A program made the position numbers and the translations under genes. The notes under the pieces are model-generated. The model worked only from the letters and a program-made list of their open reading frames with translations, had not been told where the DNA came from and made no database searches. From Marsupella aquatica (lineage: Eukaryota; Plantae; Marchantiophyta): a DNA stretch of 64,000 bases. Below, piece after piece: positions 3,318 to 59,510 of this stretch. Position 1 is the first letter of the stretch; every line of letters starts with the position of its first letter. Location of the stretch: assembly GCA_973895155.1 (NCBI GenBank), contig OZ316894.1, positions 13,573,580-13,637,579 of the forward strand, in the 5' to 3' direction.

Positions 3318-3363
3318 CAGCTAAGTAAACTATTAACTAAGAGCTTTTGTGGCCTAAAAAGGA

Positions 3364-22958: not shown

Positions 22959-23271
22959 TATGTAGTAGTCCATTACAAAAGCTACACAATGAATAGACGC
23001 ACACAACAAGATACACATACAGCTCATACTATGCACAGTCCCTTACATATCCAAAATGGCCTCTTCCACATCACCCAACAGGGCTGCGGCACATTGGCGA
23101 ACCCATGCTCGGTGTTTCACAACCTGCTTCTCATACTCACACATGCCATTTTTGTCTGGCATCCTACTCACCAAGTTACTGCGGTTGCACAAACAAGTCA
23201 TCCATTTATTGCTCATACTTGCTACTCATTGCACTTCAAAGAGTCACCTACTCACAACAAAACAAATCCAA

Positions 23272-30976: not shown

Positions 30977-31165
30977 TGTTAGACGATGGCTATAATTCAT
31001 ACACCAACAACACAAGGATAATCTTTTCATGAGCCAATGTGGCTTATAAGGTGTTACACATTGGATGGTTATAACTACCTTCTCCTAGTCTCATGACTCT
31101 CTATATCTAGTCCCTATATACCCCTTTGTATCACTCTATGAGTTAGGGTTAAGTGTATTCTAACA
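30977..31165 (-). repeat. Copia 3' LTR
   Basis: Direct repeat of 36283-36471; adjacent PPT at 31166-31174. Confidence 0.97.
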
Positions 31166-31444
31166 CTCCCCCTTGGTTACTTCAATAGAAAGTAACCATT
31201 CTATAGAATAGAGCTAATCCTAATTCAGGGTATATTAGAACTTATAAACGACATGATCTCATTAAAAACCCCCTGCTTTCTTCTTTGGGGTAAAAAGAGT
31301 ATCACTGTCTTACATGTAATAAGTTCGTTAAGTTGAGGGGACTGAGTATATGCTAAGTAGTAATGTGCCATTCTACCAGGTATTACGGGTTTAGGGTGAT
31401 CGTAATAATAATGCCTGAAACGAGTAGTCGAGGGCATTTAGGTA

Positions 31445-36112: not shown

Positions 36113-36282
36113 TGTCAGGTTAATTGAAGTCTAGTAGCCCTGGGGAATTGGCCATGGTCTATGTAAATCAGGGTGCGGGCGGTGAAGAATTGTCGATGAC
36201 AATTGGATGTTATCAAAGAGAGAAAGAGGGAAAAAAAACATAAGCTCGAGAAGATTGAAGGGCATAAATCGTGCTGATAACG

Positions 36283-36471
36283 TGTTAGACGATGGCTATA
36301 ATTCATACACCAACAACACAAGGATAATCTTTTCATGAGCCAATGTGGCTTATAAGGTGTTACACATTGGATGGTTATAACTACCTTCTCCTAGTCTCAT
36401 GACTCTCTATATCTAGTCCCTATATACCCCTTTGTATCACTCTATGAGTTAGGGTTAAGTGTATTTTAACA
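36283..36471 (-). repeat. Copia 5' LTR
   Basis: Direct repeat of 30977-31165; PBS adjacent at ~36268-36282. Confidence 0.97.
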
Positions 36472-36823
36472 GTCTTAAGTATTCTCACTTTATCTCTCAG
36501 AAAGTTCATCTCCTCCTCAGACTGTCTCGGTGCGGATTGCAGCTCCATATATTTTTTCCGCAGTCTCTTGCATGCACGAGAGAAACGCAAGTGAGGGTTC
36601 ACCTCGCCCTCCCCTCCCGCCCACCAGGCAGCCTCCAATTGCTCAATATTCTTCTGATCCCGGAGTATGTATGGGTTAGCTTTAAAAAAGTGGGACTTAC
36701 CTCTTTCAGATTCCCTCTCCTCAATCTGAAAGCGCAAAACAGCCACAATGGGATCATGGTCCGACAGTGACGAGCCCCCATCATGAGTTAGCTCCACAGT
36801 GCCAGCAATCCAACCTCCAAGAC

Positions 36824-39800
36824 TGTGGTACGTCCCATGGCTCCCTAAACCCAAGAAACCCCCCCAGCTCAAGCCGATTCCCGCAAGTTTCACGCTTGGC
36901 GAGGCCGTTTCCGCGGCTTAGCGGCATGGGACGCTGCTAACTTCCTTCTACTACTACTATTAACATTTTACACACATATACTGGACAGATCCTTCATCGG
37001 GTCATGAGATACGTAGCCAACCTAATCTAGGCCTTCCCTTGTCTTCCCCTCCATCTTGTTAGGTATGTTTGGATTCCGCCGCCGGAATGATCCCCAATAG
37101 GCTTGGTTAAGCCGCTAAGACCTCTCTCAGCTCGACACATCCAACTCTCTCACTCCCTTGCTTACTTTCCTTCCTTCTGGTTGATGTGGGCACTCTTCAC
37201 ACAAGTTAATGCGACACACAAATAGCAAAATGACTCCTTCTGACTGAGTCATACCATGCACTTGCCATACAAACAGTACATCTCATACACAAGCTCTGCG
37301 AACTAAGCCGTGAGGCCAACTCTATTCAGCTCTTAGGCATGAGGAAACATGAATATACACAAGGTCACGGTATGACTAACCGAGAGCTTCTCTTACTACT
37401 TGATCCCAGCCCGGCTGGTGCAAACTAAAAACTTGCTAAAGAAGAGGCCCTGAGCTCCCCGCTGCCCAGGTACTTATCCTGGTAGTGGATCCGCCTAATT
37501 CTTTGCAGCGTAAGCCTAATCTACCTAACAATAATCTACCTATGTACAGCAAGGCAGGAGCACAAGTGTTGCTCCTACCAGTGGAACCGCAATCCCACTA
37601 AGCTAAGTGTCAGGGCCGCTCCTGGTCCTGATCCTAATCCTAAACTTGGAGATCAGCGCCCGCCCTGCCCACTCACGCCTCCTACCTCCACGTCCGCCCT
37701 TCCTAAAAGGAACGGCGCCCTTGCACCGTCACGACACCGGTGGTAGATCCTCAATGGACGCCCCCAATGCTTCCTCCGCAACCACTGCCGTTGGTCCGTC
37801 CTCTGACAGATTACCTACCTCTGACCAAGTCAACTTTTCATCGGCCTCACTGAGCCCACCCTCGGCTTTGGCATCGGCTCGGGAATCATTCTCGGCTACG
37901 GCCTCAGCCTCGGCTTCAGCCACTGTCTCCCCGGCCTGCTCAAGAGGTGGATCTGGGATACCGGCCTCATTACTGAGTAGTTCGGCTTGGGCCGCGCCAT
38001 CCCCACCTTTGGTGATAGCGGAATCTATTGCCGTGTTCATGTCAGAGGTTGGTGCCGGTTTGAGTACGGCTTGAGGGGTCGAATAACCTCCGGACCCCGA
38101 AGGTTTCCGCTTCTTCTTCTTCACTATCTCCATAGCCTGTTCCTTCCCTTTGCCGCCAACGTTCGGCACCGGGCCGTGTGTCACGGCTGGTCCTTCGGTA
38201 ATTACCACCCCTGGTAACTGGTTTGCCCCAACGGGAGATGGACCTGATGCAGCTAAGCATTTAAATACTGCGGCTTGTTTCTTCAGCCGCTCTGTTTGGT
38301 GGTCGGCCCGCCGCTGTAGGTTCTCCATCTTCCTCGTGATTTCCTCCAACTCCTCCTGGGTCTCATCCAGGTCCTTACGTGCCTCCTCCAGCTCGTTTTT
38401 GGCTTCCTCCAATTCCTTGTGGGCTTCCTCCAATTCCTTCTTGGTGGTAGCCCTCTCCTCCTGGGTTGCTCTCAGCTCCTTGTCGAGCTCCGCTACGACC
38501 TCAGATTCCATGTTATGCATCTTGGCATAAGTCTGGTCGAGCTGGGCGTCCTTCTCCCGCAGGTCAGCCTTGAAGCTGGCCGTCAGGGACGCAAGCTCCT
38601 GCTGTAGCGCAATAATCCCTTGATAGGATTTCCCTAACTCGGCCTCCTTCTGCTCAAGGACTCCACGGATTTTCTCGAGCTCCTCCTTCAACGCCCATTC
38701 CTTTCTTTGAGTCTCCGCCGTGACCCGGTTGTTGACTGCTATATGGGCCTCCTCTGCGTTTCTCAGCTCCTTCTTCCATTTCTCCCTGTCCTTGATTGCG
38801 TCGGCCAATTCTCCTTGGGTCCGCGTTAGTAGATTCTCGATCATCCGATTATCAGATTGTGCGGTATCCAACTGGCCCTGCATGATATTTAGCTCATGCC
38901 GCTTAATCCGCAGCTCATCTTGGGCTTTCTTGGCCACCCTCAGGTCCTTGATTTTGGCTTCCCTTTCCCTAAGCCGACGGATGACCTCGTCCTTCTTGCT
39001 TCTTTCCAAGGCCACCACTTCTTCTAATTGGCGCTTCTCCAACATCTCCCTCTGGAAAAAGGGTCCCTGCTCCAACTCCTCCCCAAATATGCTGAGCGCC
39101 AGTTCTCCACACATCTCCCCGTACTCCATGGCTCTGTCTTTAGCATAGGTGGAGGAAGTAGAAGTCATCGGCATCATCCACCGCGGCCTCTGCTCCCAAG
39201 CCGTCTTGCGGATCTCTTCAATCGTGGCTAGAGGTTTGCTTCCTTTTTCGGCTAGCCGCTTGATGTCCTCCGGCCAATCTCCTCCTGGCAAATCCTTTTC
39301 TCTAGCCAGGGCTGCCTCCTCTGCCTGCCTGATTCGCTCCTGAAATTCCTGCGCCGTCTGTTTTATGCCGTCAAAGCTCGGGGGAGCAACATCTGGTGGG
39401 GGAGACTCAGGGCTACTCTGTTGGTTGGGGTCCCCTCGTACTACCCTTGGAAGTGTGGGGATAAACCGGCCACAGGTCCTTACTCCTGGAACGTGATGGT
39501 CCGACCCATAGCCGGAGTTATCATGGTTGCAGTCCTCCACTGCCTCCTCTACTTCTTGGACTTCCGGCTTCTCCCTCTCCTCTTCGTCGGTAGGAGCTTC
39601 AGGCAATTCTGCCTCAGATTCAAAGCTTGAGACTCCCACGTACATTCGAACACCCTGCTTGGATTCTGGCCTGATTCTGCTTAGGTTGACCTCTGGGGCA
39701 GTGTCCTACATTGTTGCCGTTGTCGTTGCCGATGCCGATCTCTTCTCTTTCTCCAGTAGTTTCAGCAGTTTCTGCATGCCTGGTTGCTGCATTGGCAAGT

Positions 39801-41455
39801 CTTCCTTCCTTGGCCTAAACACCTGCTCGATCATCGGGCTAACAGGTGGTTGAGGCTTCTCTGCTACCGGCCTCGGTGCTGGGGCTTCCTCGGGTGCCCT
39901 TACCTGCAGGGGAAGTACTGGGGCAAAGGTCTGACCTCTGGCATACCGGCACAACAGCGGCATGTGATAGCCAAGCCGCGACACGCTCCCCATGCCGATT
40001 ACCTGCTGCTCCTCTTTTAAGATCTTCCTCAATTGGTTGAGGAGGTACCCATTGTAGTCCCGGCTTGGGTCTGGCCTCTCTGCCAGATAGACCTGTGCCT
40101 TGCTGATCTCTGCCCTCGGCAAGTTACAATGCATGGTCACCCGCAAGAAGTCGATCATCTCTCCTATGTGCGGGTTGGTGCAGGTGTTCCGGAAGAAGCC
40201 ATTCTTCGTTGATGGCCCGGGGAACGATCGGAACTCCTTGTCAGGCAAGGTCTTCCTGGTATCAACTTTGGTCTTATTGCCTATCGGCAAGCCAAACACT
40301 TCGGCAATCACCTTGGGAGTAAGATAGAAATCCTTCCCATATATCCTCGTGCAATTGGTCTCGAGTTCCCATGACCCCACGAATTCTAATAGGTCTGAAT
40401 CCGGTACCTCCGGCTTCAGCCATGGTAATCTTACAAAGGCCTCTAAGCCGGATCCGGCCATGAAGCCTTGGTACTTCTTGGTCTGCATGGCCGTAAAGCA
40501 TGCATCCTCCTCCCGTGCAAAATGTAGTTGCACCTCCACCGGTTGGGTTGCCGCCCAGCCTTTCCAGGTGTCATCCCTGGTTGGAATGGCATTGATGGGA
40601 TCGACCTCTTCCTCTTCGGCTTCTCCCTGCCTCTTGCTCTGCTGCTCGGCTGGCTTCCTTGGTGCCGCCGACCTCGTTCTTTTTGCCGGAGTGGCTTCAT
40701 TGTTGACGGCTCCCTTCCTCTTCATCTCTGCTGCCGTGGAGGTTTCTCCTAGCACCGCTGCCGGGGTCCACCTTTCCGTGCTACCCTTCAATTCCCAGTG
40801 TATGTCGTTGCAGTTCTTGATGGCCTCTCGAATGCCGATGATTCTGTCTTTGCAAAACAGAAGATCGTCGAGCTGATTGGAAGTAGGAGTCCACAAGAAC
40901 TCGGCGTTGATGAGTTTGCCTCCTAAGAAAGCCGTCTTCTGCAGCTCCCACAATCGAGCGAGCTCCTACCGTTCTCGAGCGGCCCTTTCTGATTCCTCGT
41001 CCTCGTAAGTCTTGATGTACTCAGTTGCCCGTTCGAACAGGCATCCCCAGAAATATGCCGCTTGATTGACGTTGCTCATACCCTCCTTAGGTCGATCATC
41101 GGTATCTACTCTCTCCCCGAGTGCTTGCCTAAGCAGCTGACAGTAGTTGGCCTCCCGTAGTCGTCTGCCTAGTTCGTGCTCGCAAATGAGCCACCATCTC
41201 CTGCAAGCGCTCCTTACCCCTCTCCTCTTCCGGTCCTTTCTCCCGTTGATCCTTCCTAGCCACCGACGCTTAACGCGCCCTAACCCTAATCTTATTTTCA
41301 CCCCCAGCGTCCTTACCTCCGGCCTCGGCCCGGGTTCCATGGTCGCCCCTAATTGTTTATATTTTCCTTGTTTTGTCCCTATACTAAGGTGTTTCTAGGG
41401 TGCATTCCTGCTTTACCCACCTAACTGGCCGAGTGATTCCTGGCTAGGCATCACA
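36824..41455 (-). repeat. Gypsy 3' LTR (~4632 bp)
   Basis: Near-identical to 47446-52080. Confidence 0.96.
37729..41340 (-). pseudogene. LTR-encoded large protein, copy 1 (two CAG>TAG stops)
   Basis: ORFs 40966-41340, 39706-40953 and 37729-39645 share one frame. Contains a PMD/Transposase_32-like segment and a long coiled coil. Confidence 0.85.
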
Positions 41456-41499
41456 TAGCTCCCCACTTAATTGTGAAGCATCCTTGCGAACAACTTCAT

Positions 41500-44400
41500 C
41501 TTCGTCCATATAGTATTTCTTGAGGCGGTCATAATGGATGCGAACTGGATACACTTCTCCCGTAATATTGGCCAATTGTACGGAGCCATTGGAGAATGTA
41601 AAGCTTCCCTGGAAACCTACTATACCTACTATCATAAAGTAACACAAGATCACCGGTGTGAATACTAACTACTTTCAACTTTTTATCATACTGCTGCTTC
41701 ATGATATTCTGTCTATATTCTACTCTCACGGCTGAAATCATTCTCGCCTCCTCTAAAGCTTCTAACCTATATTCTCGCTCCTTTAGGCTCTCCTCCGCTG
41801 AGGCTCTTTCCTCAATTGTAACTTGAAATGTCGGTATCTCAAGTTGCATGGGTACCAGGGCTTCTTGTCCAAAGGTTAAGAAGAAGGGTGTATGACCGGT
41901 AGTGGTTTTATAGGCTAGATTGTAAGCAAAAACAGCAGCAAACAATTTATCATCCCAATCGAGTTTGTTCTGAGCTACTGTCTTGTCAATATCTTTCCTA
42001 TAATTCCGTTTGCTCGTTCTGTCAACCCATTTGCCTTTGGATGGTAGGGAGTAGTAGGCCTATGTCTAACTAAATACTGCTCATTTAAACGACTAATTAT
42101 ATCATTCAGAAAATGGGTTCCTCTATCACTAACTAATTCTAGGGGTGCTCCATACCTGGTGAAGATCTGCTCATACATGAATCTAGCCGTAGTAATTGCA
42201 TCATCCTTCGTTGTCGGTCTGGCCTCTACCCATTTAGTTGCATAATCCGTAGCCAGGATTATGTACTTGTTCCGTTGAGGGTGGGTCAGTGGTTTCAGAG
42301 GTCCGATGTAATCAATACCCCACTTCTCGAATGGTGCCAGAGGTAGAATAGGGTGCAATGGATGTCTGGTGGATGCCCTTGGTCCTCCCGCTCGTTGACA
42401 AGGATCGCATTGTTTGATAAATTGATAGACATCCTTGTGCAAGGTGGGCCACCAGTAACCGGCATTTAATATCTTTTTAGACGTGGTTACTGGGGCAAAA
42501 TGTCCTCCGGCCTCCTCTCCATGCATGGCCCGTAGGACTCGTTTTACCTCTCCCTTTTCCAAACACCTTTGAATCGTGCCGTTGATTCCATGCTTGTGCA
42601 GTATGCCTTTAATGCACTGATACTGTCTGACCTTCCGCAAAAAGACTGCGGCTTGTTCTCGGCTTAATCCTGGCTGTAATCTGGAAGTGCTGAGAAATTG
42701 TAAAATCTCAGGGTACCATGTATCAGCTATTTCTACAACGAATAGCTCCTCGTCGGGGAATCGATCATTGATGCAATCCGTGGCAGGTTCACCTGTGATT
42801 CTTGAAAAGAAGTCGGCATTGGTGTGTAACTTTCCTGGCTTGATCCTCAGCTCATAGTCAAACTCCTGTAATAGCAAAATCCATCTTGCTACTCTGCCTG
42901 TAAGGTCCGGCTTATTGACTAGGTACTTCAAACTTTCATGATCGGTATGAAAGATTACCTTGTACCCTAGTAAGTAATGCCTAAACTTTTTACAGGAATA
43001 AATGACTCCTAATGCTTCTCTCTCTGTGGTGGAGTAGTTCCGTTCGGCATCGGCAAGCTGACGGCTCGCGAAGTATATGGGATGGTCCCTTCCTTTCTCA
43101 TCCAACTGACTTAGTACTGAGCCGATATAGAAGCCCGAGATATCTACAAAAACATGAAAATCTTTGTTCCAGTCCGGTGCTATCATGACTGGGGCCTCTA
43201 CTAACATCTGTTTCAATTCTACCACCGCTGTGACTCGTTCGGGTGTGGGTTCGAAGTCTGCTCCTGCCTTGAGCATGTTGGTTAATGGTAAAGCTAGCTT
43301 GGAAAAATCCTTGATGAACCGGCGATAGTAACCAATGCATCCCAAGAAGGATCTTACATCCTTTATGTTCTTAGGTTGCATGATATCTAGCCATACTGCT
43401 AGCTTACCTTTGTCAATCTCAATGCCCTTCCTTGATACCTTGTGACCTAGTAGCACCCCCTCGGTTACTGCAAAGAAACATTTATCTGGGTGTAACTTGA
43501 GACCTACCTCTCTACATCTCATGAAGGTTTTCCTGAGGTATTTAGCATGTTTCGATGCCTTCCCGAATACTCCAAAGTCATCAATGAAGATTTCCATGAA
43601 CTTTCTCAAGTAATCATGAAAAATGTTCACCATTAATCGTTGGAACATAGCTGGTGCGTTGCAGAGTCCAAACGACATACGATTGAAGACATAGATCCCC
43701 CATTCCGTGATGAAGGCCGTCTTGATTTGGTCTTCCTGCCGAATCCTGATTTGGTTATAACCAGAGTACCCATCCATGAATGAATATAGTTCATGACTGG
43801 CTACCATGTCTAGTACCATATCAGTAAAGGGTAAGGGAAAATGGTCTTTTAACGTCGCTTCATTCAGTTTCCTGTAATCCTGACAAACCCGGATCTTGGG
43901 TTTACCATCGGGTCCAGCTTTCTTGGGAACTATCACAATTGGAGACACCCAGTCTGAATGCAGGACTGGAGTGATGAATCCAGCTTCCACTAGTTTGTCG
44001 ATTTCCGTTTTGACCAACAGGGAATACTTCGGGTTCATCCTTCGAATTGGTTGTCTGAATGATTTGGCTCCTAACATGAGATCAATTCGATGTTCCCCCA
44101 ATGTTGGATCTACTCCCTTTAGATCTTGGTGACTCCATGCAAACACATCCTGAAATTCAATCAGTAAGTCACTGATCTCTTTCTCAAGCTCAGGTGCTAG
44201 GTCTCTCCCTAAGTTTAGTTCCCTCCCTTCTCCTAAGTCGAGCTTCCGGTATTGCCGTGCTTGGATCATATTAATCTGCTTCTTCAAATTTGGGTCCAGC
44301 TCGGCTTCCAGTCTCTCCAGTCTCATACCTCCATAAACTGGAATCTCGGCTGTACTAGCCGAATCAGTTTCTCCCTTGGTGCCCACAGACTGTCCCCTTG

Positions 44401-47376
44401 CCGGCCTATTCGGTTTTGAATTGGTAGTAGGTTTTCCTTCCTGCCTTGGCTCTGGATTCTGTCTGTGCATCTCATCCACCTCTTCCTCCTGAGGGTCAGG
44501 CCGCTGTGCTCTCCCGGCTTCTAATAGAGCCTCAATTTGTTCTGCCCTTGTAATCGGCTTGTATGCCGATCCCTTGGTATTTAATTCCTTGCCGATGATC
44601 GATGGCGTTGTGGACCCTGTCGGCTCTGCCACAACGCCTGCAGAAAATCCACTGTCCCTGCTACTGCTCCCCACTTAGCCGTTTCATCCAATTGGTCTAC
44701 ATCCTTTACTTCCTCCGGAATTCCAGCTAAAAAGGTGGATTCTATTGTAAAGCAGTCCTTGACCTCTTCGTCTTCTTCTTCCAAGTCACCTTTCATTGGT
44801 TCTTGCCATAATCCGCTTGGGGGGTACCTCCGGTCCAAAGACACTTTCTTCGGTTTGGTCAGCGAGGCATTCTAACCAACGTACTTCATCGGCTGACTCC
44901 AGTCCACTGTCGTACCCATCTACTTCCCTTATGCTTTTCCTACGGTCATCCTTAGTGTCCCAGGATACCGTGATAGAGGGGGTCCCGAAAGTGAACTGCT
45001 TTTTACCCCAATCTTCTATTACCTCGGCTAGGTACAGCCATGGCCTGCCAATTAATAGCCAAAACGACGTAGGGTTTACCGGCTTCATTACTACATAGTT
45101 AATGCTAAAGAAGATACCTCCTATCTCTGTCTTGATGCCGGTTAACACCCCCGTGGGAATGACCTGATACCCATTGGCCATGTTTAGCACTCTTCCAGTC
45201 ATCTCGGGTGTTAGACCCCACCCTTTTGTTGTTGAATCAATCATAATACATACCCCTGATCCTCCATCGATGGGTACCCGTAGTAATATTTCTCCTTGAA
45301 TCATTAATGGTAAAGCTGGGGCTCCTTGATCTTCTTCTATCATCAGCACGTTGGATTTGGTTGCTACCTTGGGTAATCTCGGCTTGCCGAGAATAGCCTT
45401 CCTTAATTGCTTCTGGAAGTACGGGCTATTTTTCAATAGTTGACCAACTGTTGCCGAGACTCTGGATTCTAGTACATCTTTAGCCAGGTCATAGGGAACA
45501 ATCGGCTTCTCCTCTGGTGGTGTCTCCATCTTGGATTCGGTCTATTTTGCCACGCTAGTCTCCACAGCTGTTGGATCCTCCGAAGCAAACAATGCTTTTG
45601 CTCGTTTCACATCCTTGGCAATGGCTTCGGTATTCTCCAGGGTTTCTAATTCTCTCAGTTGTTCCTTAACACTAGCCGTAACAGAGGGGTAGAACAACTT
45701 AGGATGATCTCGATTGAAGTCGCTATCTTGTGAAGGATTGGGTTCACTGGTGGGCTCATGGCTTACCTGTATTGCCGGAGCCCTCCCTTCTCCTTCCGTT
45801 GATGTTGACGAAGAGTCGATCTTTTCCTCCGGGGGGTAGTACCTGGCGGTAAGACCTTAACTGGCAAGAGCTTATGATTTGCGGCCAGGCCTGCCACCCA
45901 AGTAGGACATTGCCCTAGCATATGACCTTCCTGTCGGCATCCCATACATAGTTGAGCTGGTTGTCCATCACCCTGTTTGCGTGCATTCGGGCATTCTCTA
46001 GCAAAATGGCCAGGTTGACCACAATTATAGCATGCCGCAAATCTTTGCACATTCGGCCTAGGAGGTACTGACGGGTTCTGAATAATCCGAGGATACATCT
46101 CTCCTGGATTGTTCCTTAATCCTGACCACAGGGATGCAGGTCTGTTGGATAGGTCTCGTGCTCCAGTCTCACTGATGCCGAAAACACTATCAGCGGCATC
46201 CCCTAAAAAGTACTCTACTTCTCCCTGACATGGTCTGATCTCGGCCACATGCCGAACATGATTAGTATTAAGTTTAGGACACGCATCTTTATGGTGTCCA
46301 GTTTTATAACATAAGGCACACCATACAGAGCTATCCTCCTGTACTACCTTCTTCTTCGGCTTTACCTCTGCAATTATAGCCTTAAGTTGCTCGGTAAGGG
46401 CTACGATGTTATCTGGTGGCTTAGCCTCCAGCTTGACTTTCGTCTTCCCTCTCCTTCTGCCCTTCCTTTTCCTAGTTTTTTCTTCTTCAGAACTAGAAGA
46501 TGACTCACTCTTGCTACTTCCACTATCCGAGCTTGAGTTATCACTTCTTGACTTCTTAGAATGTTTCTTCTTCTTATCCTTTTTCTTATGGGGTGATCCT
46601 TCCTCCGATGAGGAACTCTCAGACTTAAGTTGTTTCTTCCGGCTTGTGATATCTGCATTAATGTATAATTGAATATCCTTAATTGCCTCGGCCAAGGTCT
46701 CCGGGTTCTCCTTCCTAATTGCAAAACTCATCTTCTGTGGCAAAGCATTCACCAACCATTGAAGTTGCATACCTTCAGATGCATTGGTCTTTGTACGTCT
46801 TACCAGTTTCTGAAAGCGTTGCAAGAACTTCCTAAAGGATTTGTTCTCCTTGAACCGAAGTCGTCCCAACTTCAGCACTGCCAGTTCTGAAGTTCCAATG
46901 GGTCGAAACTCCTTAACAAAGAGTGTTTTGAAGATATCCTAGATGGCTTGATCTTCCACATCTAATGCTCTGTACCAAGGCCTAGCCTCACCCTTGAACA
47001 GGCCGGGAAGAATCTGCATCTTGATGGCCGATTCTCCATTTGCTGCAGCGGTTCCCTCAAAATCATCCAACCATTCGTCCGGATCCTCATCTCCTCTCCC
47101 ATGAAATGCCTTGTAATGAATGCGCGACCGTTGGCTCAGTCTGGTCCCTAGCCTCTCGTCTGGCCGTGCCTCTGGTTCCCCCATGTCGGTTGGAGACTCA
47201 CTTCTCCTTACCGACTCTTCTTCTGGTATGTTTTCTTCGACGCCACTTCCAGCTTCGGAGCTACCAGCTCTTTCTGCCCCTCTCAGTCACTGTGTATCAT
47301 GCCACCCGGCGAGCTGCTGCAGTCGAGCTCTCTCCCGTTGAATCACTCTTTCTTCCCTCGGCGTAAGGTCAGTCAT
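41500..47376 (-). pseudogene. Gypsy gag-pol with stops/frameshifts
   Basis: FHGRGDEDPDEWL (gag), three CCHC knuckles, IDGGSGV (PR), WVSPIVIVPKK, DGYSGYNQI, FIDDF (RT), DHESL..LLLQEFD (RH), GGHF..CDPC, WGIDYIGP, SDRGTHF, NGLTER (INT). Confidence 0.96.
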
Positions 47377-47445
47377 TACCTACGCTTCCTTTCTAACTTC
47401 ATATCTCACGGCTTAAGAAATGCCCCCTCCATCTAGCGCCAAAAA

Positions 47446-50400
47446 TGTGGTGCGTCCCATGGCTCCCTAAACCCAAGAAACCCCCCCAGCTCAAGCCAAT
47501 TCCCGCAGGTTTTGCGCTTGGCGAGGCCGTTTCCGCGGCTTAGCGGCATGGGACGCTGCTAACTTCCTTCTACTACTACTATTAACATTTTACACACATA
47601 TACTGGACAGATCCTTCATCGGGTCATGAGATACGTAGCCGGCCTAATCTAGGCCTTCCCTTGTCTTCCCCTCCATCTTGTTAGGTATGTTTGGATTCCG
47701 CCGCCGGAATGATCCCCAATAGGCTTGGTTAAGCCGCTAAGACCTCTCTCAGCTCGACACATCCAACTCTCTCACTCCCTTGCTTACTTTCCTTCCTTCT
47801 GGTTGATGTGGGCACTCTTCACACAAGTTAATGCGACACACAAATAGCAAAATGACTCCTTCTGACTGAGTCATACCATGCACTTGCCATACAAACAGTA
47901 CATCTCATACACAAGCTCTGCGAACTAAGCCGTGAGGCCAACTCTATTCAGCTCTTAGGCATGAGGAAACATGAATATACACAAGGTCACGGTATGACTA
48001 ACCGAGAGCTTCTCTTACTACTTGATCCCAGCCCGGCTGGTGCAAACTAAAAACTTGCTAAAGAAGAGGCCCTGAGCTCCCCGCTGCCCAGGTACTTATC
48101 CTGGTAGTGGATCCGCCTAATTCTTTGCAGCGTAAGCCTAATCTACCTAACAATAATCTACCTATGTACAGCAAGGCAGGAGCACAAGTGTTGCTCCTAC
48201 CAGTGGAACCGCAATCCCACTAAGCTAAGTGTCAGGGCCGCTCCTGGTCCTGATCCTAATCCTAAACTTGGAGATCAGCGCCCGCCCTGCCCACTCACGC
48301 CTCCTACCTCCACGTCCGCCCTTCCTAAAAGGAACGGCGCCCTTGCACCGTCACGACACCGGTGGTAGATCCTCAATGGACGCCCCCAATGCTTCCTCCG
48401 CAACCACTGCCGTTGGTCCGTCCTCTGATAGATTACCTACCTCTGACCAAGTCAACTTTTCATCGGCCTCACTGGGCCCACCCTCGGCTTTGGCATCGGC
48501 TTGGGAATCATTCTCGGCTACGGCCTCAGCCTCGGCTTCAGCCACTGTCTCCCCGGCCTGCTCAAGAGGTGGATCTGGGATACCGGCCTCATTATTGAGT
48601 AGTTCAGCTTGGGCCGCGCCATCCCCACCTTTGGTGATAGCGGAATCTATTGCCGTGTTCATGCCGGAGGTTGGTGCCGGTTTGAGTACGGCTTGAGGGG
48701 TCAAATAACCTCCGGACCCCGAAGGTTTCCGCTTCTTCTTCTTCACTATCTCCACAGCCTGTTCCTTCCCTTTGCCGCCAACGTCCGGCACCGGGCCGTG
48801 TGTCACGGCTGATCCTTCGGTAATTACCACCCCTGGTAACTGGTTTGCCCCAACGGGAGATGGACCTGATGCAGCTAAGCATTTAAATATTGCGGCTTGT
48901 TTCTTCAGCCGCTCTGTTTGGTTGTCGGCCCGCCGCTGTAGGTTCTCCATCTTCCTCGTGATTTCCTCCAACTCCTCCTGGGTCTCATCCAGGTCCTTAC
49001 GTGCCTCCTCCAGCTCGTTTTTGGCTTCCTCCAATTCCTTGTGGGCTTCCTCCAATTCCTTCTTGGTGGTAGCCCTCTCCTCCTGGGTTGCTCTCAGCTC
49101 CTTGTCGAGCTCCGCTACGACCTCAGATTCCATGTTATGCATCTTGGCATAAGTCTGGTCGAGTTGGGCGTCCTTCTCCCGCAGGTCGGCCTTGAAGCTG
49201 GCCGTCAGGGACGCAAGCTCCTGCTGTAGCGCAATAATCCCTTGATAGGATTTCCCTAACTCGGCCTCCTTCTGCTCAAGGACTCCGCGGATTTTCTCGA
49301 GCTCCTCCTTCAACGCCCATTCCTTTCTTTGAGTCTCCGCCGTGACCCGGTTGTTGACTGCTATATGGGCCTCCTCTGCGTTTCTCAGCTCCTTCTTCCA
49401 TTTCTCCCTGTCCTTGATTGCGTCGGCCAATTCTCCTTGGGTCCGCGTTAGTAGATTCTCGATCATCCGATTATCAGATTGTGCGGTATCCAACTGGCCC
49501 TGCATGATATTTAGCTCATGCCGCTTAATCCGCAGCTCATCTTGGGCTTTCTTGGCCACTCTCAGGTCCTTGATTTCGGCTTCCCTTTCCCTAAGCCAAC
49601 GGATGACCTCGTCCTTCTTGCTTCTTTCCAAGGCCACCGCTTCTTCTAATTAATTGGCGCTTCTCCAACATCTCCCTCTGGAAAAAGGGTCCCTGCTCCA
49701 ACTCCTCCCCAAATATGCTGAGCGCCAGTTCTCCACACATCTCCCCGTACTCCATGGCTCTGTCTTTAGCATAGGTGGAGGAAGTAGAAGTCATCGGCAT
49801 CATCCACCGCGGCCTCTGCTCCCAAGCCGTCTTGCGGATCTCTTCAATCGTGGCTAGAGGTTTGCTTCCTTTTTTGGCTAGCCGCTTGATGTCCTCCGGC
49901 CAATCTCCTCCTGGCAAATCTTTTTCTCTAGCCAGGGCTGCCTCCTCTGCTTGCCTGATTCGCTCCTGAAATTCCTGCGCCGTCTATTTTATGCCGTCAA
50001 AGCTCGGGGGAGCAACATCTGGTGGGGGAGACTCAGGGCTACTCTGCTGGTTGGGGTCCCCTCGTACTACCCTTGGAAGTGTGGGGATAAACCGGCCACA
50101 GGTCCTTACTCCTGGAACGTGATGGTCCGACCCATAGCCAGAGTTATCATGGCTGCAGTCCTCCACTGCCTCCTCTACTTCTTGGACTTCCGGCTTCTCC
50201 CTCTCCTCTTCGTCGGTAGGAGCTTCAGGCAATTCTGCCTCAGATTCAGAGCTTGAGACTCCCACATACATTCGAACACCCTGCTTGGATTCTAGCCTGA
50301 TTCTGCTTAGGTTGACCTCTGGGGCAGTGTCCTGCATTGTTGCCGTTGTCGTTGCCGATGCCGATCTCTTCTCTTTCTCCAGTAGTTTCAGCAGTTTCTG

Positions 50401-52080
50401 CATGCCTGGTTGCTGCATCGGCAAGTCTTCCTTCCTTGGCCTAAACACCTGCTCGATCGTCGGGCTAACAGGTGGTTGAGGCTTCTTTGCTACCGGCCTC
50501 GGTGCTGGGGCTTCCTCGGGTGCCCTTACCTGCAAGGGAAGTACTGGGGCAAAGGTCTGACCTCTGGCATACCGGCACAACAGCGGCATGTGATAGCCAA
50601 GCCGCGACACGCTCCCCATGCCGATTACCTGCTGCTCCTCTTTTAAGATCTTCCTCAATTGGTTGAGGAGGTACCCATTGTAGTCCCGGCTTGGGTCTGG
50701 CCTCTCTGCCAGATAGACCTGTGCCTTGCCGATCTCTGCCCTTGGCAAGTTACAATGCATGGTCACCCGCAAGAAGTCGATCATCTCTCCTATGTGCGAG
50801 TTGGTGCAGGTGTTCCGGAAGAAGCCATTCTTCGTTGATGGCTCGGGGAACGACCGGAACTCCTTGTCAGGCAAGGTCTTCCTGGTATCAACTTTGGTCT
50901 TATTGCCTATCGGCAAGCCAAACACTTCGGCAATCACCTTGGGAGTAAGATAGAAATCCTTCCCATATATCCTCGTGCAATTGGTCTCGGGTTCCCATGA
51001 CCCCACGAATTCTAATAGGTCTGAATCCGGTACCTCCGGCTTCAGCCATGGTAATCTTACAAAGGCCTCTAAGCCGGATCCGGCCATGAAGCCTTGGTAC
51101 TTCTTGGTCTGCATGGCCATAAAGCATGCATCCTCCTCCCGTGCAAAATGTAGTTGCACCTCCACCGGTAGGGTTGCCGCCCAGCCTTTCCAGGTGTCAT
51201 CCCTGGTTGGAATGGCATTGATGGGATCGACCTCTTCCTCTTCGGCTTCTCCCTGCCTCCTGCTCTGCTGCTCGGCTGGCTTCCTTGGTGCCGCCGACCT
51301 TGTTCTTTTTGCCGGAGTGGCTTCATCGTTGACGGCTCCCTTCCTCTTCATCTCTACTGCCGTGGAGGTTTCTCCTAGCACCGTTGCCGGGGTCCACCTT
51401 TCCGTGCTACCCTTCAATTCCCAGTGTATGTCGTTGCAATTCTTGATGGCCTCTCGAATGCCGATGATTCTGTCTTCGCAAAACAGAAGATCGTCGAGCT
51501 GATTGGAAGTAGGAGTCCACAAGAACTCGGCGTTGATGAGTTTGCCTCCTAAGAAAGCCATCTTTTGCAGCTCCCACAATCGAGCGAGCTCCTGCCGTTC
51601 TCGAGCGGCCCTTTCTGATTCCTCGTCCTCGTAAGTCTTGATGTACTCAGTTGCCCGTTCGAACAGGCATCCCCAGAAATGTGCCGCTTGATTGACGTTG
51701 CTCATACCCTCCTTAGGTTGATCGTTGGTATCTACTCTCTCCCCGAGTGCTTGCCTAAGTAGCTGACAGTAGTTGGCCTCCCGTAGTCGTCTGCCTAGTT
51801 CGTGCTCGCAAATGAGCCACCATCTCCTGCAAGCGCTCCTTACCCCTCTCCTCTTCCGGTCCTTTCTCCCATTGATCCTTCCTAGCCGCCGACGCTTAAC
51901 GCGCCCTAACCTAATCTTGCTTTCACCCCCAGCGTCCTTACCTCCGGCCTCGGCCCGGGTTCCATGGTCGCCCCTAATTGTTTATATTTTCCTTGTTTTG
52001 TCCCTATACTAAGGTGTTTCTAGGGTGCATTCCTGCTTTACCCACCTAACTGGCCGAGTGATTCCTGGCTAGGCATCACA
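47446..52080 (-). repeat. Gypsy 5' LTR (~4635 bp)
   Basis: Near-identical to 36824-41455; followed on the minus strand by the PBS. Confidence 0.96.
48351..51965 (-). pseudogene. LTR-encoded large protein, copy 2 (stop plus frameshifts)
   Basis: Same protein as copy 1. TAG at 49984, a 4-bp duplication near 49648 and an indel near 51910. Confidence 0.85.
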
Positions 52081-52304
52081 AAGACCACTAAGGTAAAACC
52101 ACTAGTAGAAACCGGGGGTATTTAGACCCCATTAAACAACTATTCAGTACCGTATAGGACTTGGAAACAACTGGGAAGGACTCCAGTCCTTTGTAGGACT
52201 ATGAGTTGTATGTTTTGTTACTATAATCAACTGAGTCCTTTATAGAACTGGTTTATAAGTCATTTTATAGACTGGATTTTCAGTCTGTTGTAGTCTTTGT
52301 GTGG

Positions 52305-55300
52305 TGTGGTGCGTCCCATGGCTCCCTAAACCCAAGAAACCCCCCAGCTCAAGCCGATTCCCGCAGGTTTCGTGCTTGGCGAGGCCGTTTCCGCGGCTTA
52401 GCGGCATGGGACGCTGCTAACCTTCTACTATTACTATTAACATTTTACACACATATACTGGACAGATCCTTCATCGGGTCATGAGATACGTAGCCGGCCT
52501 AATATAGGCCTTCCCCTGTCTTCCCCTGTCTTCCCCTCCGTCTTGTTAGGTATGTTTGGATTCCGCCCCCGGAATGATCCCCAATAGGCTTGGTTAAGCC
52601 GCTAAGACCTCTCTCAGCTCGACACATCCAACTCTCACTCCCCTGCTTACTTTCCTTCCTTCTGTTGATGTGGGCACTCTTCACACAAGTTAATGCGACA
52701 CACAAATAGCAAAATGACTCATTCTGACTGAGTCATACCATGCACTTGCCATACAAACAGTACATCTCATACACAAGTTCTGCGAACTAAGCCGTGAGGC
52801 CAACTCTATTCATCTCTTAGGCATGAGGAAACATGAATATACACAAGGGTCACTGTATGACTAACCGAGAGCTTCTCGTACTACTTGATCCCAGCCCGGC
52901 TGGTGCAAACTAAAAACTTGCTAAAGAAGAGGCCCTGAGCTCCCCGCTGCCCAGGTACTTATCCTGGTAGTGGATCCGCCATTCTTTGCATCGTAAGCCT
53001 AATCTACCTGACAGTAATCTACTTGCCCGAATCTACCTATGTACAACAAGGCAGGAGCACAAGTGTTGCTCCTACCAGTGGAACCGCAATCCCACTAAGC
53101 TAAGTGTCAGGGCCGCTCCTGGTTCTAATCCTAATCCTAAACGTGGAGATCCGCGCCCGCCCTGCCCACTCACGCCTCCTCCCTCCACGTCCGCCCTCCC
53201 TAAAAGGAACGGCGCCCTTGCACCGTCACGACACCGGTGGTGGATCCTCAATGGACGCCCCCAACACTTCCTCCTCAGCCACTGCCGTTGGCCCGCCTAC
53301 TGACAGATTACCTGCCCTTGACCGAGTCAACTCTCCATCGGCCTGACTGGGTCCACCTTCGGCTTCAGCCTCGATACCGGCCTCGGCAATACCCACGGCT
53401 TCGGCCTCAGCCACTCCCTCGGCTTCGGCCTCCCCTTCCCCTAGGGTAGTTGGATCCTTAGCCGTGACCCTGTCTGGGGTCGGTGCTGGGTCTACCTCCT
53501 TGATCACCACGGCCTGTGAAGTCGTATTACTCCTTGACCCTGAAGGTTTCCGCTTCTTCTTCGTTGGTGGCTCGGCAGCTGGTCCCTTCCCCTTCCCACT
53601 TACTTCCGGCACTGGTGCAGTTGACGCGGCTTGTCCTTCGGCAATTACCACCCCTGGTAACTGGTTTGTCCCAACGGGAGATGGACCTACTGCAGCTAAG
53701 CATTTAAATACTGCGGCTTGTTTCTTCAGCCGCTCTGTTTGGTTGTCGGCCCGCCGCTGTAGGTTCTCCATCTTCCTCGTGATTTCCTCCAACTCCTCTT
53801 GGGTTTCATCCAGGTCCTTACGTGCCCCCTCCAGCTCGTCTTTGGCCTCCTCCTGCTCCCTGTGGGCTTCCTCCAATTCCTTCTTCAAGGTAGCCCTCTC
53901 CTCCTGGGTTGCTCTTAGCTCCTTGTCGAGCTCTGCAATGATGACAGACTCCATCTGGTTCATCTTGGCGTAAGTCTGTTCGAGCATCTCGTCCTTCTCC
54001 CTTAGGTCGGCCTTGAAGCTGGCCGTCAGGGACGCAAGCTCCTGCTGCAGCGCCATAATCCCTTGATAGGATTTCCCTAACTCGACCTCCTTCTGCTCAA
54101 GGGCTCCGCGGATTTTCTCGAGCTCCCCTTTCAACGCCCATTCCTTTCTTTGGGTCTCCGCCATGGCCCGGCTGTTGGCTGTTATGTGGGCCTCCTCTGT
54201 ATTCTTCAGCTCTTGCTTCCACTTCTCCCTCTCTTTGATCGTGTCGGCCAACTCTTCCTGCGTCTGAGTCAGTTTATCCTTGATATTCTGATTATCAGCC
54301 TGCGCGGTGTCCAACTGCCCCTGCATGATGTTCAGCTCATGTCGTTTAATCCGCAGTTCATCTTGGGCTTTCTTGGCCGCCCTTAGATCTTCAATCTCGG
54401 CTTCCATCCTCCTAAGCCGCCGAATGACCTCGTCCTTCTTGCTTCTCTCTAAAGCCACCGCTTCTTCTAATTGGTGCTTCTCCAACTGCTCCCTATGGAA
54501 AAAGGGTCCTACCTCCAACTCCTCTCCAAAGATGCCGAGCGCAAGTTCCCCACACATCTCACCATACTCCATGGCTCTATTCTTAGCGTAGGTGGAGTAA
54601 GTAGAAGTGATCGGCATCGCCCATCGTGGCCTCTGCTCCCAAGCCGTCCTGCGGATCTCTTCAATCGTGGCTAGAGGTTTGCTTCCTTTTTCGGCTAGCC
54701 GCCTGATGTCCTCCGGCCAATCTCCTCCTGGCAAATCCTTTTCCTTAGCCAGGGCGGCCTCTTCCTCCTGCTTGATTCGCTCCTGAAATTCCTGCACCGT
54801 CTGTTTTATGCCGTCAAAGCTCGGGGGAGCAACATCTGGTGGGGGAGACTCAGGGCTACTCTGCTGGTTGGGGTCCCCTCGCACTACCCTTGGAAGTGTG
54901 GGGACAAACCGGCCACAGGTCCTTACTCCTGGAACGTGATGGTCCGACCCATAGCCGGAATTATCATGGCTGCAGTCCTCCACTGCCTCCTCTACCTCTT
55001 GGACGTCCGGCTTCTCCCTCTCCTCTTCGTCGGTAGGAGCTTCAGGCAATTCTGCCTCAGATTCGGAGCTTGAGGTTCCCACGTACATTCGAACACCTGG
55101 CTTGGATTCCGGCCTGATTCTCTCCTTGTCTCCAGCAAAGGGGTTTTCTCTTGTGAGCCGGTGTAGGCCTACCTCTGTAGTAGTGTCCTGCATTGTTGCC
55201 GTTGCCGTTGTTGTTGCCGATGCCGATTTCTTTTCTTTCTCCAGTAGTTTCAGCAGACTCTGCATGCCTGGTTGCTGCATCGGCAAGTCTTCCTTCCTGG

Positions 55301-56940
55301 GCCTAAACACCTGCTCGATCGTAGGACTAACAGGTGGTTGAGGCTTCTCAGCCAACGGCCTCGGCGTTGGAGCTTCCTCGGGTGCCCTTACCTGCAGGGG
55401 AAGTACCGGGGCAAAAGTCTGACCTCTGGCATACCGGCACAACAGCGGCATGTGATAGCCAAGCCGCGACACGCTCCCCATGCCGATTACCTGCTGCTCC
55501 TCCTTTAAGATCTTCTTCAATTGGTTGAGGAGGTACCCGTTGTAGTCCCGGCTTGGGTCTGGCCTTTCTGCCAGATAGACCTGTGCCTTGCCAATCTCTG
55601 CCCTCGGCAAGTTACAATGCATGGTCACCCGCAAGAAGTCGATCATCTCTCCTATGTGCGGGTTGGTGCAGGTATTCCGGAAGAAGCCATTCTTCGTTGA
55701 TGGCCCGGGGAACGACCGGAACTCCTTGTCAGGCAAGGTCTTCCTGGTATCAACTTTGGTCTTATTGCCTATCGGCAGGCCAAACACTTCGGCAATTACC
55801 TTGGGAGTAAGATAGAAATCCCTCCCATATATCCTCGTGCAATTGGTCTCGGGTTCCCATGACCCCACGAATTCTAATAGGTCTGACTCCGGTACCTCCG
55901 GCTTCAGCCATGGTAATCTTACAAAGGCCTCCAAGCCGGATCCGGCCATGAAGCCTTGGTACTTCTTGGTCTGCATGGCCGTAAAGCATGCATCCTCCTC
56001 CCGTGCAAAATGTAGTTGCACCTCCACCGGTAGGGTTGCCGCCCAGCCCTTCCAGGTGTCATCCCTGGTTGGAATGGCATTGATGGGATCGACCTCCTCC
56101 TCTTCGGCTTCTCCCTGCCTCCTGCTCTGCTGCTCGGCTGGCTTCTTTGGTGCCGCCGACCTCGTTCTTTTTGCCGGGGTGGCTTCATCGTTGACGGCTC
56201 CCTTCCTCTTCATCTCTGCTGCCGTGGAGGTTTCTCCTAGCACCGTTGCCTGGGTCCACCTTTCCGTGCTACCCTTTAATTCCCAGTGTATGTCGTTGCA
56301 GTTCTTGATGGCCTCTCGGATGCCGACGACGCTGTCTTTGCAAAACAGAAGATCGTCGAGTTGATTGGAAGTAGGTGTCCACAGGAACTCGTCCTTGATG
56401 AGTTCGCCTCCTAAGAAAGCCGTCTTCTGCAGCTCCCACAATCAAGCGAGCTCCTGCTGTTCTCGAGCTGCCCTTTCTGACTCCTCGTCTTCGTAAGTCT
56501 TGATGTACTCAGTTGCCCGTTCGAACAGGCATCCCCAGAAATGTGCCGCTTGATTGACGTTGCTCATACCCTCCTTAGGTCGATCGTCGGTATCTACTCT
56601 CTCCCCGAGTGCTTGCCTAAGCAGCTGACAGTAGTTGGCCTCCCGTAGTCGTCTGCCTAGTTCGTGCTCGCAAATGAGCCACCATCTCCTGCAAGCGCTC
56701 CTTACCCCTCTCCTCTGCCGGTCCTTCTTCCCGTTGATCCTTCCTAGCCGCCGACGCTTAACGCGCCCTAACCCTAATCGGGTTTTCACCCTTAGCCTTA
56801 CCTCCGGCCTCGGCCCGGGTTCCATGGTTGCCCCTAATTGTTTATATTTTCCTTGTTTTGTCACTATACTAAGGTGTTCCTAGGGTGCCTTCCTGCTTTA
56901 CCCACTTAACCGGCCGAGTGATTCCTGTCTAGGCATCACA
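52305..56940 (-). mobile_element. Solo LTR of the gypsy family (~4636 bp, divergent subfamily)
   Basis: TG..CA ends, TSD TGTGG (52300-52304, 56941-56945), no internal region. Collinear with the gypsy LTRs. Confidence 0.96.
53226..56864 (-). CDS. LTR-encoded large protein, copy 3 (~1,210 codons, a single CGA>TGA stop at 56442-56444)
   Basis: 1071 uninterrupted codons plus 140 in-frame upstream codons. GLEAFVRLPWL..LLEFVGSWE..IYGRDFYLTPKVIAEVFGLP followed by a heptad-rich coiled coil. Confidence 0.88.
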
Positions 56941-59510
56941 TGTGGGTAGGTTTGGTGAGTCTTTTTCAGTCTTTTATGGGCTGCGATGGTGAGTCGTTGG
57001 GAACGACTCAAAAGGTTATGGAGGGTAGTCTTTAAGTATACTTTGTGGGTTTATAAAACGACTAAAGTAGACACTTTGTGGGGTATGTATAAGTCTTTCA
57101 AGTCAACTGGAAATGAGTGATGAAGACCCCACTATACTACTTGGAATGAACTCACTCTTGTGCACAAATAACACATTCCATTCATGTTTTATTGTGTACT
57201 TGGAATGAACTCACTCTATAAGCTCACCATTCACCATGTTAACATTAGAACCTCACACAAATTTTCAGAAATCTTCTATACCATGTACACTAATATGAAT
57301 TCACAGATTCAAACATCATAGACTACAAAGAAGGTCACAAAGCATTCGTCTATACCATACACACTAATACTGAAATGATACAAAACAGATTCAAGTATCA
57401 TAGACAATCAGCATAGAGCCATAGTTTGACATCAATCACTTGTTTCATACATACAGAATTCAGAAATATGAATGTCACACACAACAGCTCCTTCATCCTC
57501 TTTACCAAATGGAAAAATTGGTACAGATATTTCTTGGATCTTTCCAAGGCAATGTCAAAATGTTACACAATTCACATGATTCTATCTACACTTGCATTCA
57601 GTCACTGTAGACTAACACACTCTGATGGCCAGAGCACAAGAGATCCTACTGCATCTGCAATTATTTCCTGAGGTGAATCATCGTCTCTATTCAGAAATGG
57701 CAAATTACAATCAGATACAATCACTGTAGTCAACAACACTACTACATGGTCATCCGGGACCACTTTGCCATGGAATTTAGCATGATCCGGTCGCAAAATG
57801 CCTGTACCCACACATACCTGCGAGTCATCCTCCCTTGATAGAAGATTATGGACTGGCTCTGCTGTGGCTATCACCTCCACCTTACCCTGGCTATTTTTCT
57901 TGGCTTTCCTGGGTGGCTTATACATGACATTATTCATACCTTGGTTGCGAGTCATGACTTTGGCACAAGTGTTTTGTGCTGGTGATCGAGAATGGGCTAC
58001 ACTCTTCTTCAAAGAATCTGCATCCATATTTGACACTTCCGATTGTGTAGCAGGATTTCCCTGCAACATCATCTCAGTATCTGCCAACATTGTACTTGCT
58101 TCAATTGAAGCATCTACAATCTTACTTGCATCCAATGTTGCTCCCAAGTTTCGACGTCACTTCACCCTGCTCCCACTTGGTTGAGAGTCTGTCAACTCTG
58201 CATCAACTACAATTCAGTGCATTGTCCAACATAAGTGAATCACTCATCACATGTGCGCCATGTACATGTCACCAACCACAAAGTTGTCACTATCTCCTTA
58301 CCATTATGAACAGCCTTCTTCCCCTTCTTTGCCATTGCCATATCCTCCATGTCTACTTCTGATGATCAATAAACACACCACAATATTCAGGTTCAATCTA
58401 TTAACCACTAAATTGTTTCTCAACAATGGTAGGAGAGGAATTTGAAGCATCAGCTTACCTGATACCTCCTTGGCTATGGTCACTGAGGCATTGGGCACAT
58501 CTTTTTCATTGCTCTTTGAATCACCTGATACATCAATCATGATGTCACTTCAGATCCCAGTTGATCCAACCAGTTCTTACAGAAAATATTACCTCCAACC
58601 GGCTTAAGCTTCACAAAACTCCATGCACTTTTCAATGTAATGTACTGGATCATAGCAGGTTACCTATCTTAGCAACCTTTTTGCCATTCTGCTTACTGAT
58701 TACAGGGTCCTTCTCTACCTCCACTCTTCCTGCATTCAAACCATTCACTCAATTCATGAAAACTTACTTCTAACATTTGAACATAGGACACAATGAACAA
58801 TGGGCCGGTGTCATTTCCATACCTGTGTCAGATTTGCCAATTCCCTTTTTTGTTAACAAGGGCACACTTTGTACAATGTTGCCCTCATTGTTTGGTTGGG
58901 AACCACCCAATTTTTCAATCACAAGCTTGAAATTAGATTCCACTGATGCAAGAAGGTTCGCTACAGATGCCTCCACAATATCCAAACGATCAGCCAATTT
59001 ACTTTCCACTCGAGGGAGTCCACACTCTAATGACTTCAACCGTTCACACATCTCTGTGAGAGTTGTAACAGTTCCCTGTCATAACACAACTTACATATCT
59101 CAGATAATTGTCCCCAAGAACTGGTTGCTTACTTCCTACTACAATTCTTTCTGATGCTCAAGGCAAAATAGTCACAGAACATACAGAATTACAACATAAT
59201 CACCTGTTTGGAAGTCACACTTGTCACCTCACTCCTTTGTTTCATGAACTCCTCTCTCACTTCTTGTGCTGATGGTTCTTCACCTGTCAATTTCTTCTAC
59301 AGTCCACATCAACATACATATGAATGAAACCAAGTGTTGATTGTCAATGAAAATGTAATAATGGTAGCAAGATGATAAGTTTGAGGCTTACTATCAGGCA
59401 TGTCACTGCCTTACCAATTGTTCTTTCACTAGAGCATAACTTCCTCTCCCAGCCTGTGATAGGTGTTTCACTTTGCCTCGAGCATTTGACATCAGTTCAC
59501 TCTTGCTCTG

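Follow-up and report, generated by a model that had tools for sequence, protein, structure and literature searches.

Can a plant retrotransposon carry a protein-coding gene inside its long terminal repeats (LTRs), so that every insertion brings two copies of it and a solo LTR still contains one? This question is raised by a locus of the liverwort Marsupella aquatica (assembly GCA_973895155.1, contig OZ316894.1, forward-strand positions 13,573,580 to 13,637,579). The 64,000 nucleotides of this stretch form the window analysed here, and all positions refer to it. The window contains a Ty3/gypsy LTR retrotransposon and a related solo LTR, and both carry a long open reading frame (ORF) within the LTR. 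Solo-LTR formation is regarded as the means by which plant genomes remove LTR elements and render them harmless. A first-pass annotation of the sequence had proposed that an accessory gene has been absorbed into the LTR, is duplicated with each insertion and survives this process. The follow-up shows that the gene belongs to the LTR itself, is doubled per insertion and persists in solo LTRs. The proposal stands for a selected LTR gene, and its general principle, gene survival in solo LTRs, is not new, being already described for the sag gene of mouse mammary tumour virus (MMTV) in the available part of PMC4667437.

A gene within the LTR

The full element (36824..52080, minus strand, 15,257 bp) is a defective Ty3/gypsy retrotransposon that is Athila-like by its features. 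It is flanked by the target site duplication (TSD) AAGAC (left copy 36819..36823, right copy 52081-52085). Its 5' LTR (47446..52080, minus strand, 4,635 bp) and 3' LTR (36824..41455, minus strand, 4,632 bp) both have TG...CA ends and are 98.3% identical to each other in a self-comparison of the window. The solo LTR (52305..56940, minus strand, 4,636 bp) is about 91% identical to both and lies near the end of a CACTA-like element.

In all three LTRs, the accessory ORF starts at LTR nucleotide (nt) 116 and ends 921 nt before the LTR end. It occupies 53226..56825 in the solo LTR (minus strand, 1,199 codons, 77.7% of the LTR), 37729..41340 in the 3' LTR (minus strand) and 48351..51965 in the 5' LTR (minus strand). 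In the solo copy, a single premature stop (codon 128, 56442-56444) precedes 1,071 open codons; among 1,000 LTR shuffles, the maximum without a stop was 359 codons. The 3' LTR copy has two premature stops (codons 124 and 546), and the 5' LTR copy has one (codon 675) together with a 1-bp deletion and a 4-bp insertion. Each lesion is private to a single copy among the three compared, and a sense codon is found at the position of the solo stop in 95% and 98% of the contig depth of sequencing runs X4 and X5, respectively. The shared ORF, the single stop of the solo copy and the copy-specific lesions were thus as the first-pass annotation had described them. The G+C content of the ORF is 0.56 vs 0.46 for gag-pol, and at third codon positions it is 0.63 vs 0.43-0.47, which suggests a history separate from that of gag-pol.

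The independence of the solo LTR was also borne out. Its TSD, TGTGG, is present at 52300-52304 and 56941-56945 and is identical to the terminal five bases of the LTR itself, a possible source of doubt. In run X5, a contig joint from 52299 to 56941 skips 4,641 bases, corresponding to the LTR plus five, with five letters fitting either side. This joint corresponds to the empty site, as carried by further copies of the CACTA-like element that hosts the LTR. The solo LTR contains the telomere-like word TTAGGG six times, with three occurrences in its first 175 nt and one in its last 25 nt, and the 6-kb internal region contains it twice, counts that chance may explain.

Anatomy, lineage and abundance of the element

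The 5,990-bp internal region is filled by gag-pol in pieces (41529..47184, minus strand), broken by stops and frameshifts, in which a Pfam scan identified Retrotrans_gag, zf-CCHC, RVT_1, RT_RNaseH, Integrase_H2C2 and rve. The primer-binding site (PBS; 47424..47441, minus strand) lies 4 nt past the 5' LTR and presumably matches tRNA-Asn, and no tRNA gene is present within the 64-kb window. The polypurine tract (PPT; 41456..41468, minus strand) lies directly behind the integrase frame and adjoins the 3' LTR. TG...CA LTRs, a TSD, a PBS, a PPT and the order reverse transcriptase, RNase H, integrase, as expected of Ty3/gypsy, are all present. The Pfam scan of the pol pieces gave a single RNase H region and no match to a chromodomain or an additional RNase H.

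According to the lineage overview in supplement 5 of PMC6317226, Athila is a non-chromovirus of the OTA group with a 5-bp TSD, a length of 7-23 kb, no extra RNase H and a PBS for tRNA-Asp, -Asn or -Ala, with tRNA-Asn as a minor primer. By its 5-bp TSD, its 15.3 kb and the lack of a chromodomain or extra RNase H match, the element fits the Athila lineage. Two other assignments were considered and rejected. Phygy and Selgy have a 4-bp TSD, lengths of 7.7-10 kb and 4.4-6.7 kb, respectively, and no extra ORF (eORF) (PMC6317226, supplement 5); the present element, with 5-bp TSDs, 15.3 kb and a long eORF, has only the compact internal region in common with them. Tat, Ogre and Retand require an additional RNase H domain, and one RNase H region was seen.

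Near-identical DNA (at least half of the words) was found in six sequencing runs with four organism labels from four studies. The family looks abundant because 34,101 contigs of run X1 align to an 11.4-kb stretch. The summed contig depth of the LTR relative to the internal region was 3.4 (X1) and 3.6 (X2), with 2 expected without solo LTRs; this depth is not a copy number and was not used as evidence. Contig joints leading from inside the LTR to the LTR end were also observed (37662, 39434 and 39956 to 47446; 54877 to 52305), and these look as if copies insert into their own LTRs.

Selection between lineages and decay after insertion

The solo and element ORFs differ over 1,173 codons by about 183 nonsynonymous and 151 synonymous changes. 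The earlier observation that differences were synonymous or conservative, made on one stretch, does not extend to the whole ORF, but the ratio of nonsynonymous to synonymous rates (dN/dS) is well under 1, and not near 1 as the first-pass annotation had named for its refutation. Without correction, the two solo-element comparisons gave 0.33 and 0.31. At kappa 4 the values were 0.46 and 0.43 (bootstrap 0.37-0.57 and 0.35-0.53, respectively), and at kappa 8 they were 0.51 and 0.48. Shifted frames of the ORF gave 1.06-1.13 uncorrected. The LTR tail, read as pseudo-codons, gave 0.54-0.75 uncorrected from about 25 changes, which cautions against the uncorrected figure of the ORF. Third codon positions hold 164 of the 334 changes; the antisense frame sharing these third positions scores a similar dN/dS but is not open. 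In addition, insertions and deletions that both element LTRs have in common relative to the solo LTR are in frame in six of six cases in the ORF and in one of eight in the tail (Fisher p 0.005). Along the protein, dN/dS is lowest in a conserved core (0.18-0.20), followed by a coiled coil (0.37) and a disordered C-terminus (0.7).

A different pattern is observed between the two LTRs of the element. Their Kimura two-parameter distance is 0.015 (67 transitions, 2 transversions), the changes fall on ORF codon positions 1, 2 and 3 in the numbers 19, 17 and 20, and C>T changes at CG (26) and CHG (24) sites account for most of the 59 changes. The integrated copies are therefore methylated and drift, and their decay after insertion looks neutral. 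As judged from codon patterns, the ORF is thus shown to be under purifying selection between element lineages and to decay after insertion, and selection therefore works through cycles of transposition, as is reported for sag. Taken together, the ORF is almost certainly a selected gene belonging to the LTR.

The solo and element LTRs diverge unevenly: by about 3% up to 1.5 kb, by 10-20% between 2.3 and 3.2 kb, by 30% between 3.3 and 3.6 kb and by less than 3% in the tail. This patchiness suggests that subfamilies have recombined in the C-terminal half of the ORF. One stretch, 53341-53640 (minus strand, solo LTR nt 3301-3600), is about 30% diverged beside 3% stretches and is, on that divergence, a recombinant patch from a distant subfamily. 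Another, ORF codons 38-111 (56493-56714, minus strand), comprises 74 codons without a shared difference between element and solo, synonymous sites included. RNA folding of these codons was no better than in shuffles (z 0.1), and their invariance may reflect a cis-element or recent homogenisation.

The encoded protein

The first-pass annotation had noted a segment resembling plant mobile domain (PMD) and Transposase_32 folds and a coiled coil like that of SMC proteins. For the conserved core (55392..56099, minus strand), the top structural match is VANC21 (PDB 9lnk/9lnj), across the whole core at an identity of 6-11%. An Atlas search gave ATHILA ORF-1 (PF03078) and Transposase_32 (PF20167) as look-alikes. 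These model comparisons back the earlier guess independently, and the core probably has a VANC/PMD/Transposase_32-like fold. The resemblance holds at the level of structure and not at that of Pfam models: PMD (PF10536), DUF1985, Transposase_32 and ATHILA matched none of the 22 proteins and none of the 25 alignment members. Foldseek with the model of the window protein found no match in PDB or viral structures, a profile search found none among PDB sequences, and the Atlas search of the N-terminal domain gave no usable match.

The coiled-coil region (53712..54467, minus strand) covers about 250 aa, approximately aa 659-910 of the 1,071-codon piece. The ORF protein has no SMC ATPase motifs (Walker A, LSGG); the coiled coil is generic and lacks an ABC-type ATPase head, and the SMC reading was rejected, although a coiled coil as such is present. 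An env-like protein was also rejected, as there is no transmembrane helix and the top 19-residue hydropathy is 0.95.

Homologs of the LTR protein with a named source come from the liverwort Calypogeia fissa, where they are filed as unnamed proteins. A word-index protein search found two Calypogeia proteins among those of near length and none with the full ORF, alignment to longer proteins gave none, and metagenome locus scans found no relative. Of the 21 representatives that were matched, neither core alignment includes P0011 (2,214 aa with bacterial Ig repeats) or P0006 (N-terminal part only), and alignment A2 also lacks P0022. A profile of the homolog N-terminus did not match the ORF, and a short motif could be aligned by eye.

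Promoter and position within the LTR

The TATAAA at 41356-41361, reported earlier, is present in all three LTRs (also 51981-51986 and, in the solo LTR at nt 95, 56841..56846, minus strand), where it is the sole TATAWA match on either strand and a candidate promoter of the accessory gene. The first 115 nt of the LTR differ at seven sites among the three copies, and TATAAA is unchanged. Its end lies 15 nt from Met1, too near for a usual start site, since transcription beginning ~30 nt beyond the TATA would miss Met1, and Met87 would therefore be the likely start codon if TATAAA is a promoter. By eye, the N-termini of homologs have a Met a few residues ahead of an FW motif, like the one after Met87.

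Whether the ORF lies in the unique 3' region (U3) of the LTR or in its repeat (R) and unique 5' region (U5) had been left open earlier; the sequence now leans towards U3, owing to the LTR end. The non-coding tail (52305..53225, minus strand, 921 bp, 2.7-3.0% diverged) contains UG-rich stretches. It also contains an invariant block that includes TATATG and an A-rich element, followed by a predicted long hairpin in the final ~110 nt (52310..52415, minus strand), a candidate R/U5 leader. The hairpin has z-scores of -4.9 (solo), -4.5 (5' LTR) and -2.8 (3' LTR) and is the most stable of 38 windows, with LTR nt 1277-1396 close to it (z -4.0 vs -4.2). By analogy, these features look like a normal promoter, a short R and a structured U5; in retroviruses, R measures 11-150 bp according to the available part of PMC3601003. 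On this sequence evidence, a location of the ORF in U3 is likely. In addition, purine runs are observed at 53175-53201 (minus strand), 25-50 nt past the ORF stop, the second being followed by CG-TG. They could be a vestige of an old PPT and LTR start, with an ancestral LTR of about 870 bp, in a G-rich region where chance is also possible.

Proposed explanation and alternatives

Our overall proposal, to which we give an even chance, is an Athila-like element with a selected LTR gene, likely in U3, whose product is predicted to have a VANC/PMD-like core that likely counters silencing. The ancestral state would be an Athila sense accessory ORF between pol and the 3' LTR, taken into U3 once plus-strand priming shifted to the PPT directly behind integrase; the position of this PPT makes conversion of an Athila 3' sense ORF into U3 the simplest history. 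The gene would sit behind its own TATA box, and the final ~150 nt of the LTR would accommodate the genomic promoter together with R and U5. The TATA at nt 95 would drive a separate mRNA, probably translated from Met87 and ending at the poly(A) site of the LTR, and a young solo LTR would then be a self-contained gene. The VANC/PMD-like core would likely bind the element's own DNA and counter host silencing; that the protein is a nuclear regulator acting for the element is, in our view, an evenly balanced suggestion. The strongest version appears doubtful: the LTR of a high-copy liverwort family as a complete anti-silencing gene with promoter and terminator, solo LTRs that keep making a VANC-like protein de-silencing the family in trans, and thus the first retrotransposon analogue of VANC and the first LTR-borne gene of a plant.

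Alternatives were also considered. The gene may be real with a role other than lifting silencing, acting through its coiled coil as a scaffold of the particle or integration complex, in target-site choice or in self-limiting copy control. We hold this to be rather less than probable. The ~250-aa coiled coil is itself under selection (dN/dS 0.37), coiled-coil pentamers have been predicted for proteins with an Athila domain (PMC13547354), integrated copies become methylated, and no target-motif arrays of the VANC type were found (no tandem family in the tail, no 6-8-mer above chance). However, constraint is strongest in the core, which in structure best matches an anti-silencing protein bound to DNA, and without a transmembrane helix the protein is not env-like.

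It is also possible, but rather unlikely, that the gene lies in U3 and depends for its expression on the tail of the genomic RNA or on a spliced form of it, in the style of nef or spliced sag, with the nt-95 TATA being no promoter and solo LTRs being silent fossils. All three ORF copies in the window are broken, and every copy decays. Met1 has a strong start context; it lies only 115 nt into the LTR and is closely preceded by an AG. MMTV sag transcripts start at the U3/R junction and in env besides U3, as reported in the available part of PMC4667437. Against this, TATAAA has stayed invariant amid the seven differing sites, no other TATAWA exists in the 4.6 kb, and the A-rich sequence ahead of Met1 does not resemble a plant splice acceptor.

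Unlikely is a single promoter at nt 95, giving a U3 of ~120 nt and an R that spans the ORF, with short transcripts ending in the 5' LTR for the accessory protein and read-through or spliced transcripts for gag-pol. The only canonical TATA is at nt 95, with a donor-like AGGTAA behind it at nt 138. Close to the LTR end there is just a weak TATA-like word, and another at nt 4435 is confined to the solo LTR. However, this arrangement requires a 4-kb R, far beyond the retroviral range given above, and places gag 4.8 kb from the cap; AGGTAA occurs five times in the LTR, and the LTR end, with its hairpin and invariant block, resembles an ordinary leader.

A separate element nested in a short LTR, which the first-pass annotation had named as a possible refutation, or captured DNA open by chance, is largely refuted and very improbable: the higher G+C of the ORF would suit it, but no inner termini are present, the PBS and PPT adjoin the 4.6-kb repeats, the empty site removes the entire 4,636 bp plus TSD, no ORF-only skip is found among the contig joints listed (best 15 of 64; best 15 of 165), and codons and reading frame are under selection.

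Surrounding transposons

A Pfam scan of the window revealed a neighbourhood of nested plant transposons: copia, CACTA and LINE. A Ty1/copia element (30977-36474, minus strand) looks complete; its 192-bp LTRs are 99% identical, and its gag-pol contains stops. Pieces of a CACTA-type transposase (Transposase_21, DUF4218, DUF4216) are present at 10187-14489 (plus strand), and ahead of them lies an ORF with a SET domain (E 1.3e-6), possibly a captured histone methyltransferase domain in a CACTA element. A second CACTA-type element occupies 22947-26228 (minus strand). The same 12-nt terminal word is present at 22947 and 52100, the latter 14 bp past the TSD of the retrotransposon, and 23384-23862 resembles 63515-63993 (73%). 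LINE pieces (zf-RVT, endonuclease, RVT_1) are located at 3364-4668, 15492-17165 and 29062-30633 (minus strand).

Significance and comparison with known systems

A gene inside the LTR survives solo-LTR formation, and its dose is doubled per insertion. The role of the extra ORFs of Athila and Ogre has long been open, and a VANC-like fold offers a testable answer: DNA binding and de-silencing. Liverwort homologs would extend the PMD/VANC fold, described from angiosperms, to early land-plant transposons. In practical terms, LTR finders with small LTR size caps miss such elements, and annotators may call their ORFs host genes.

Most sources cited for the following systems were available in part, and the comparisons hold for those parts. 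Plant extra ORFs are reviewed as features of the internal region (PMC7264820; PMC6317226), and no plant gene borne by an LTR was found in the literature searched, mostly without subscription papers; the per-element table of PMC6317226 could list cases. The available parts of PMC3485330, PMC12885004, PMC1560396 and bioRxiv 2026.08.24.746577 describe none. Retrosat2, RIRE3 and RIRE8 are similar in having LTRs above 3 kb, an extra selected ORF and many solo LTRs; in these elements, ORF0 is described upstream of gag-pol and not inside the LTR (PMC3485330).

The predicted fold is shared, via VANC, with PMD-A of Ogre/Gypsy and with MAIN/MAIL1. PMDs encoded by Gypsy elements, PMD-A included, have been described from angiosperms (PMC5418596). 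MAIN/MAIL1 are also angiosperm proteins, PMD-A is mostly antisense in Ogre (3' eORFs in 431 of 434 cases; PMC6317226, supplement 4), and there is no PF10536 match here. VANC proteins are found in Mutator-like DNA transposons of eudicots and bind arrays of short motifs (PMC5735166). The likeness to VANC21 of VANDAL21 comprises the structural match of the whole core, the nature of a transposon-encoded accessory protein and a coiled coil; unlike VANC21, the present protein has no DUF1985 match and no motif array, and its anti-silencing activity is predicted.

The Athila 3' sense eORF (ATHILA ORF-1, PF03078, or Transposase_32, PF20167) lies downstream of pol (PMC6317226; PMC11728184), and ATHILA ORF-1 matches a 3' sense ORF in 166 cases (PMC6317226, supplement 4). 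The present ORF is likewise a sense ORF downstream of pol, in an element with a 5-bp TSD and without an extra RNase H. It differs in that the ORF is inside the LTR because the PPT lies upstream of it, and in that neither family's HMM matches.

The closest layout is that of sag in MMTV and related betaretroviral endogenous retroviruses. The sag gene of MMTV is located in U3, and some of its promoters are within U3 as well. Most copies occur in solo LTRs, with 490 of 527 sag contigs lacking other viral genes (PMC4667437). The gene is under purifying selection before integration, and none is shown after it (PMC4667437; PMC11998498). Here, too, an ORF lies wholly within the LTR, is selected and is kept in a solo LTR; as with sag, the gene is doubled per provirus, selection acts before integration and recombination occurs within the gene. 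Unlike sag, the present case belongs to a plant Ty3/gypsy element, encodes an unrelated protein without a transmembrane helix and is known from sequence alone, and it has a 3.6-kb gene in a 4.6-kb LTR vs a sag LTR of ~1.3 kb. The locus thus offers a larger plant counterpart of a retroviral layout, well supported in its structure, with a cargo whose probable fold links the extra ORFs of Athila to VANC and PMD, and for which we infer both the function and the expression from solo LTRs.

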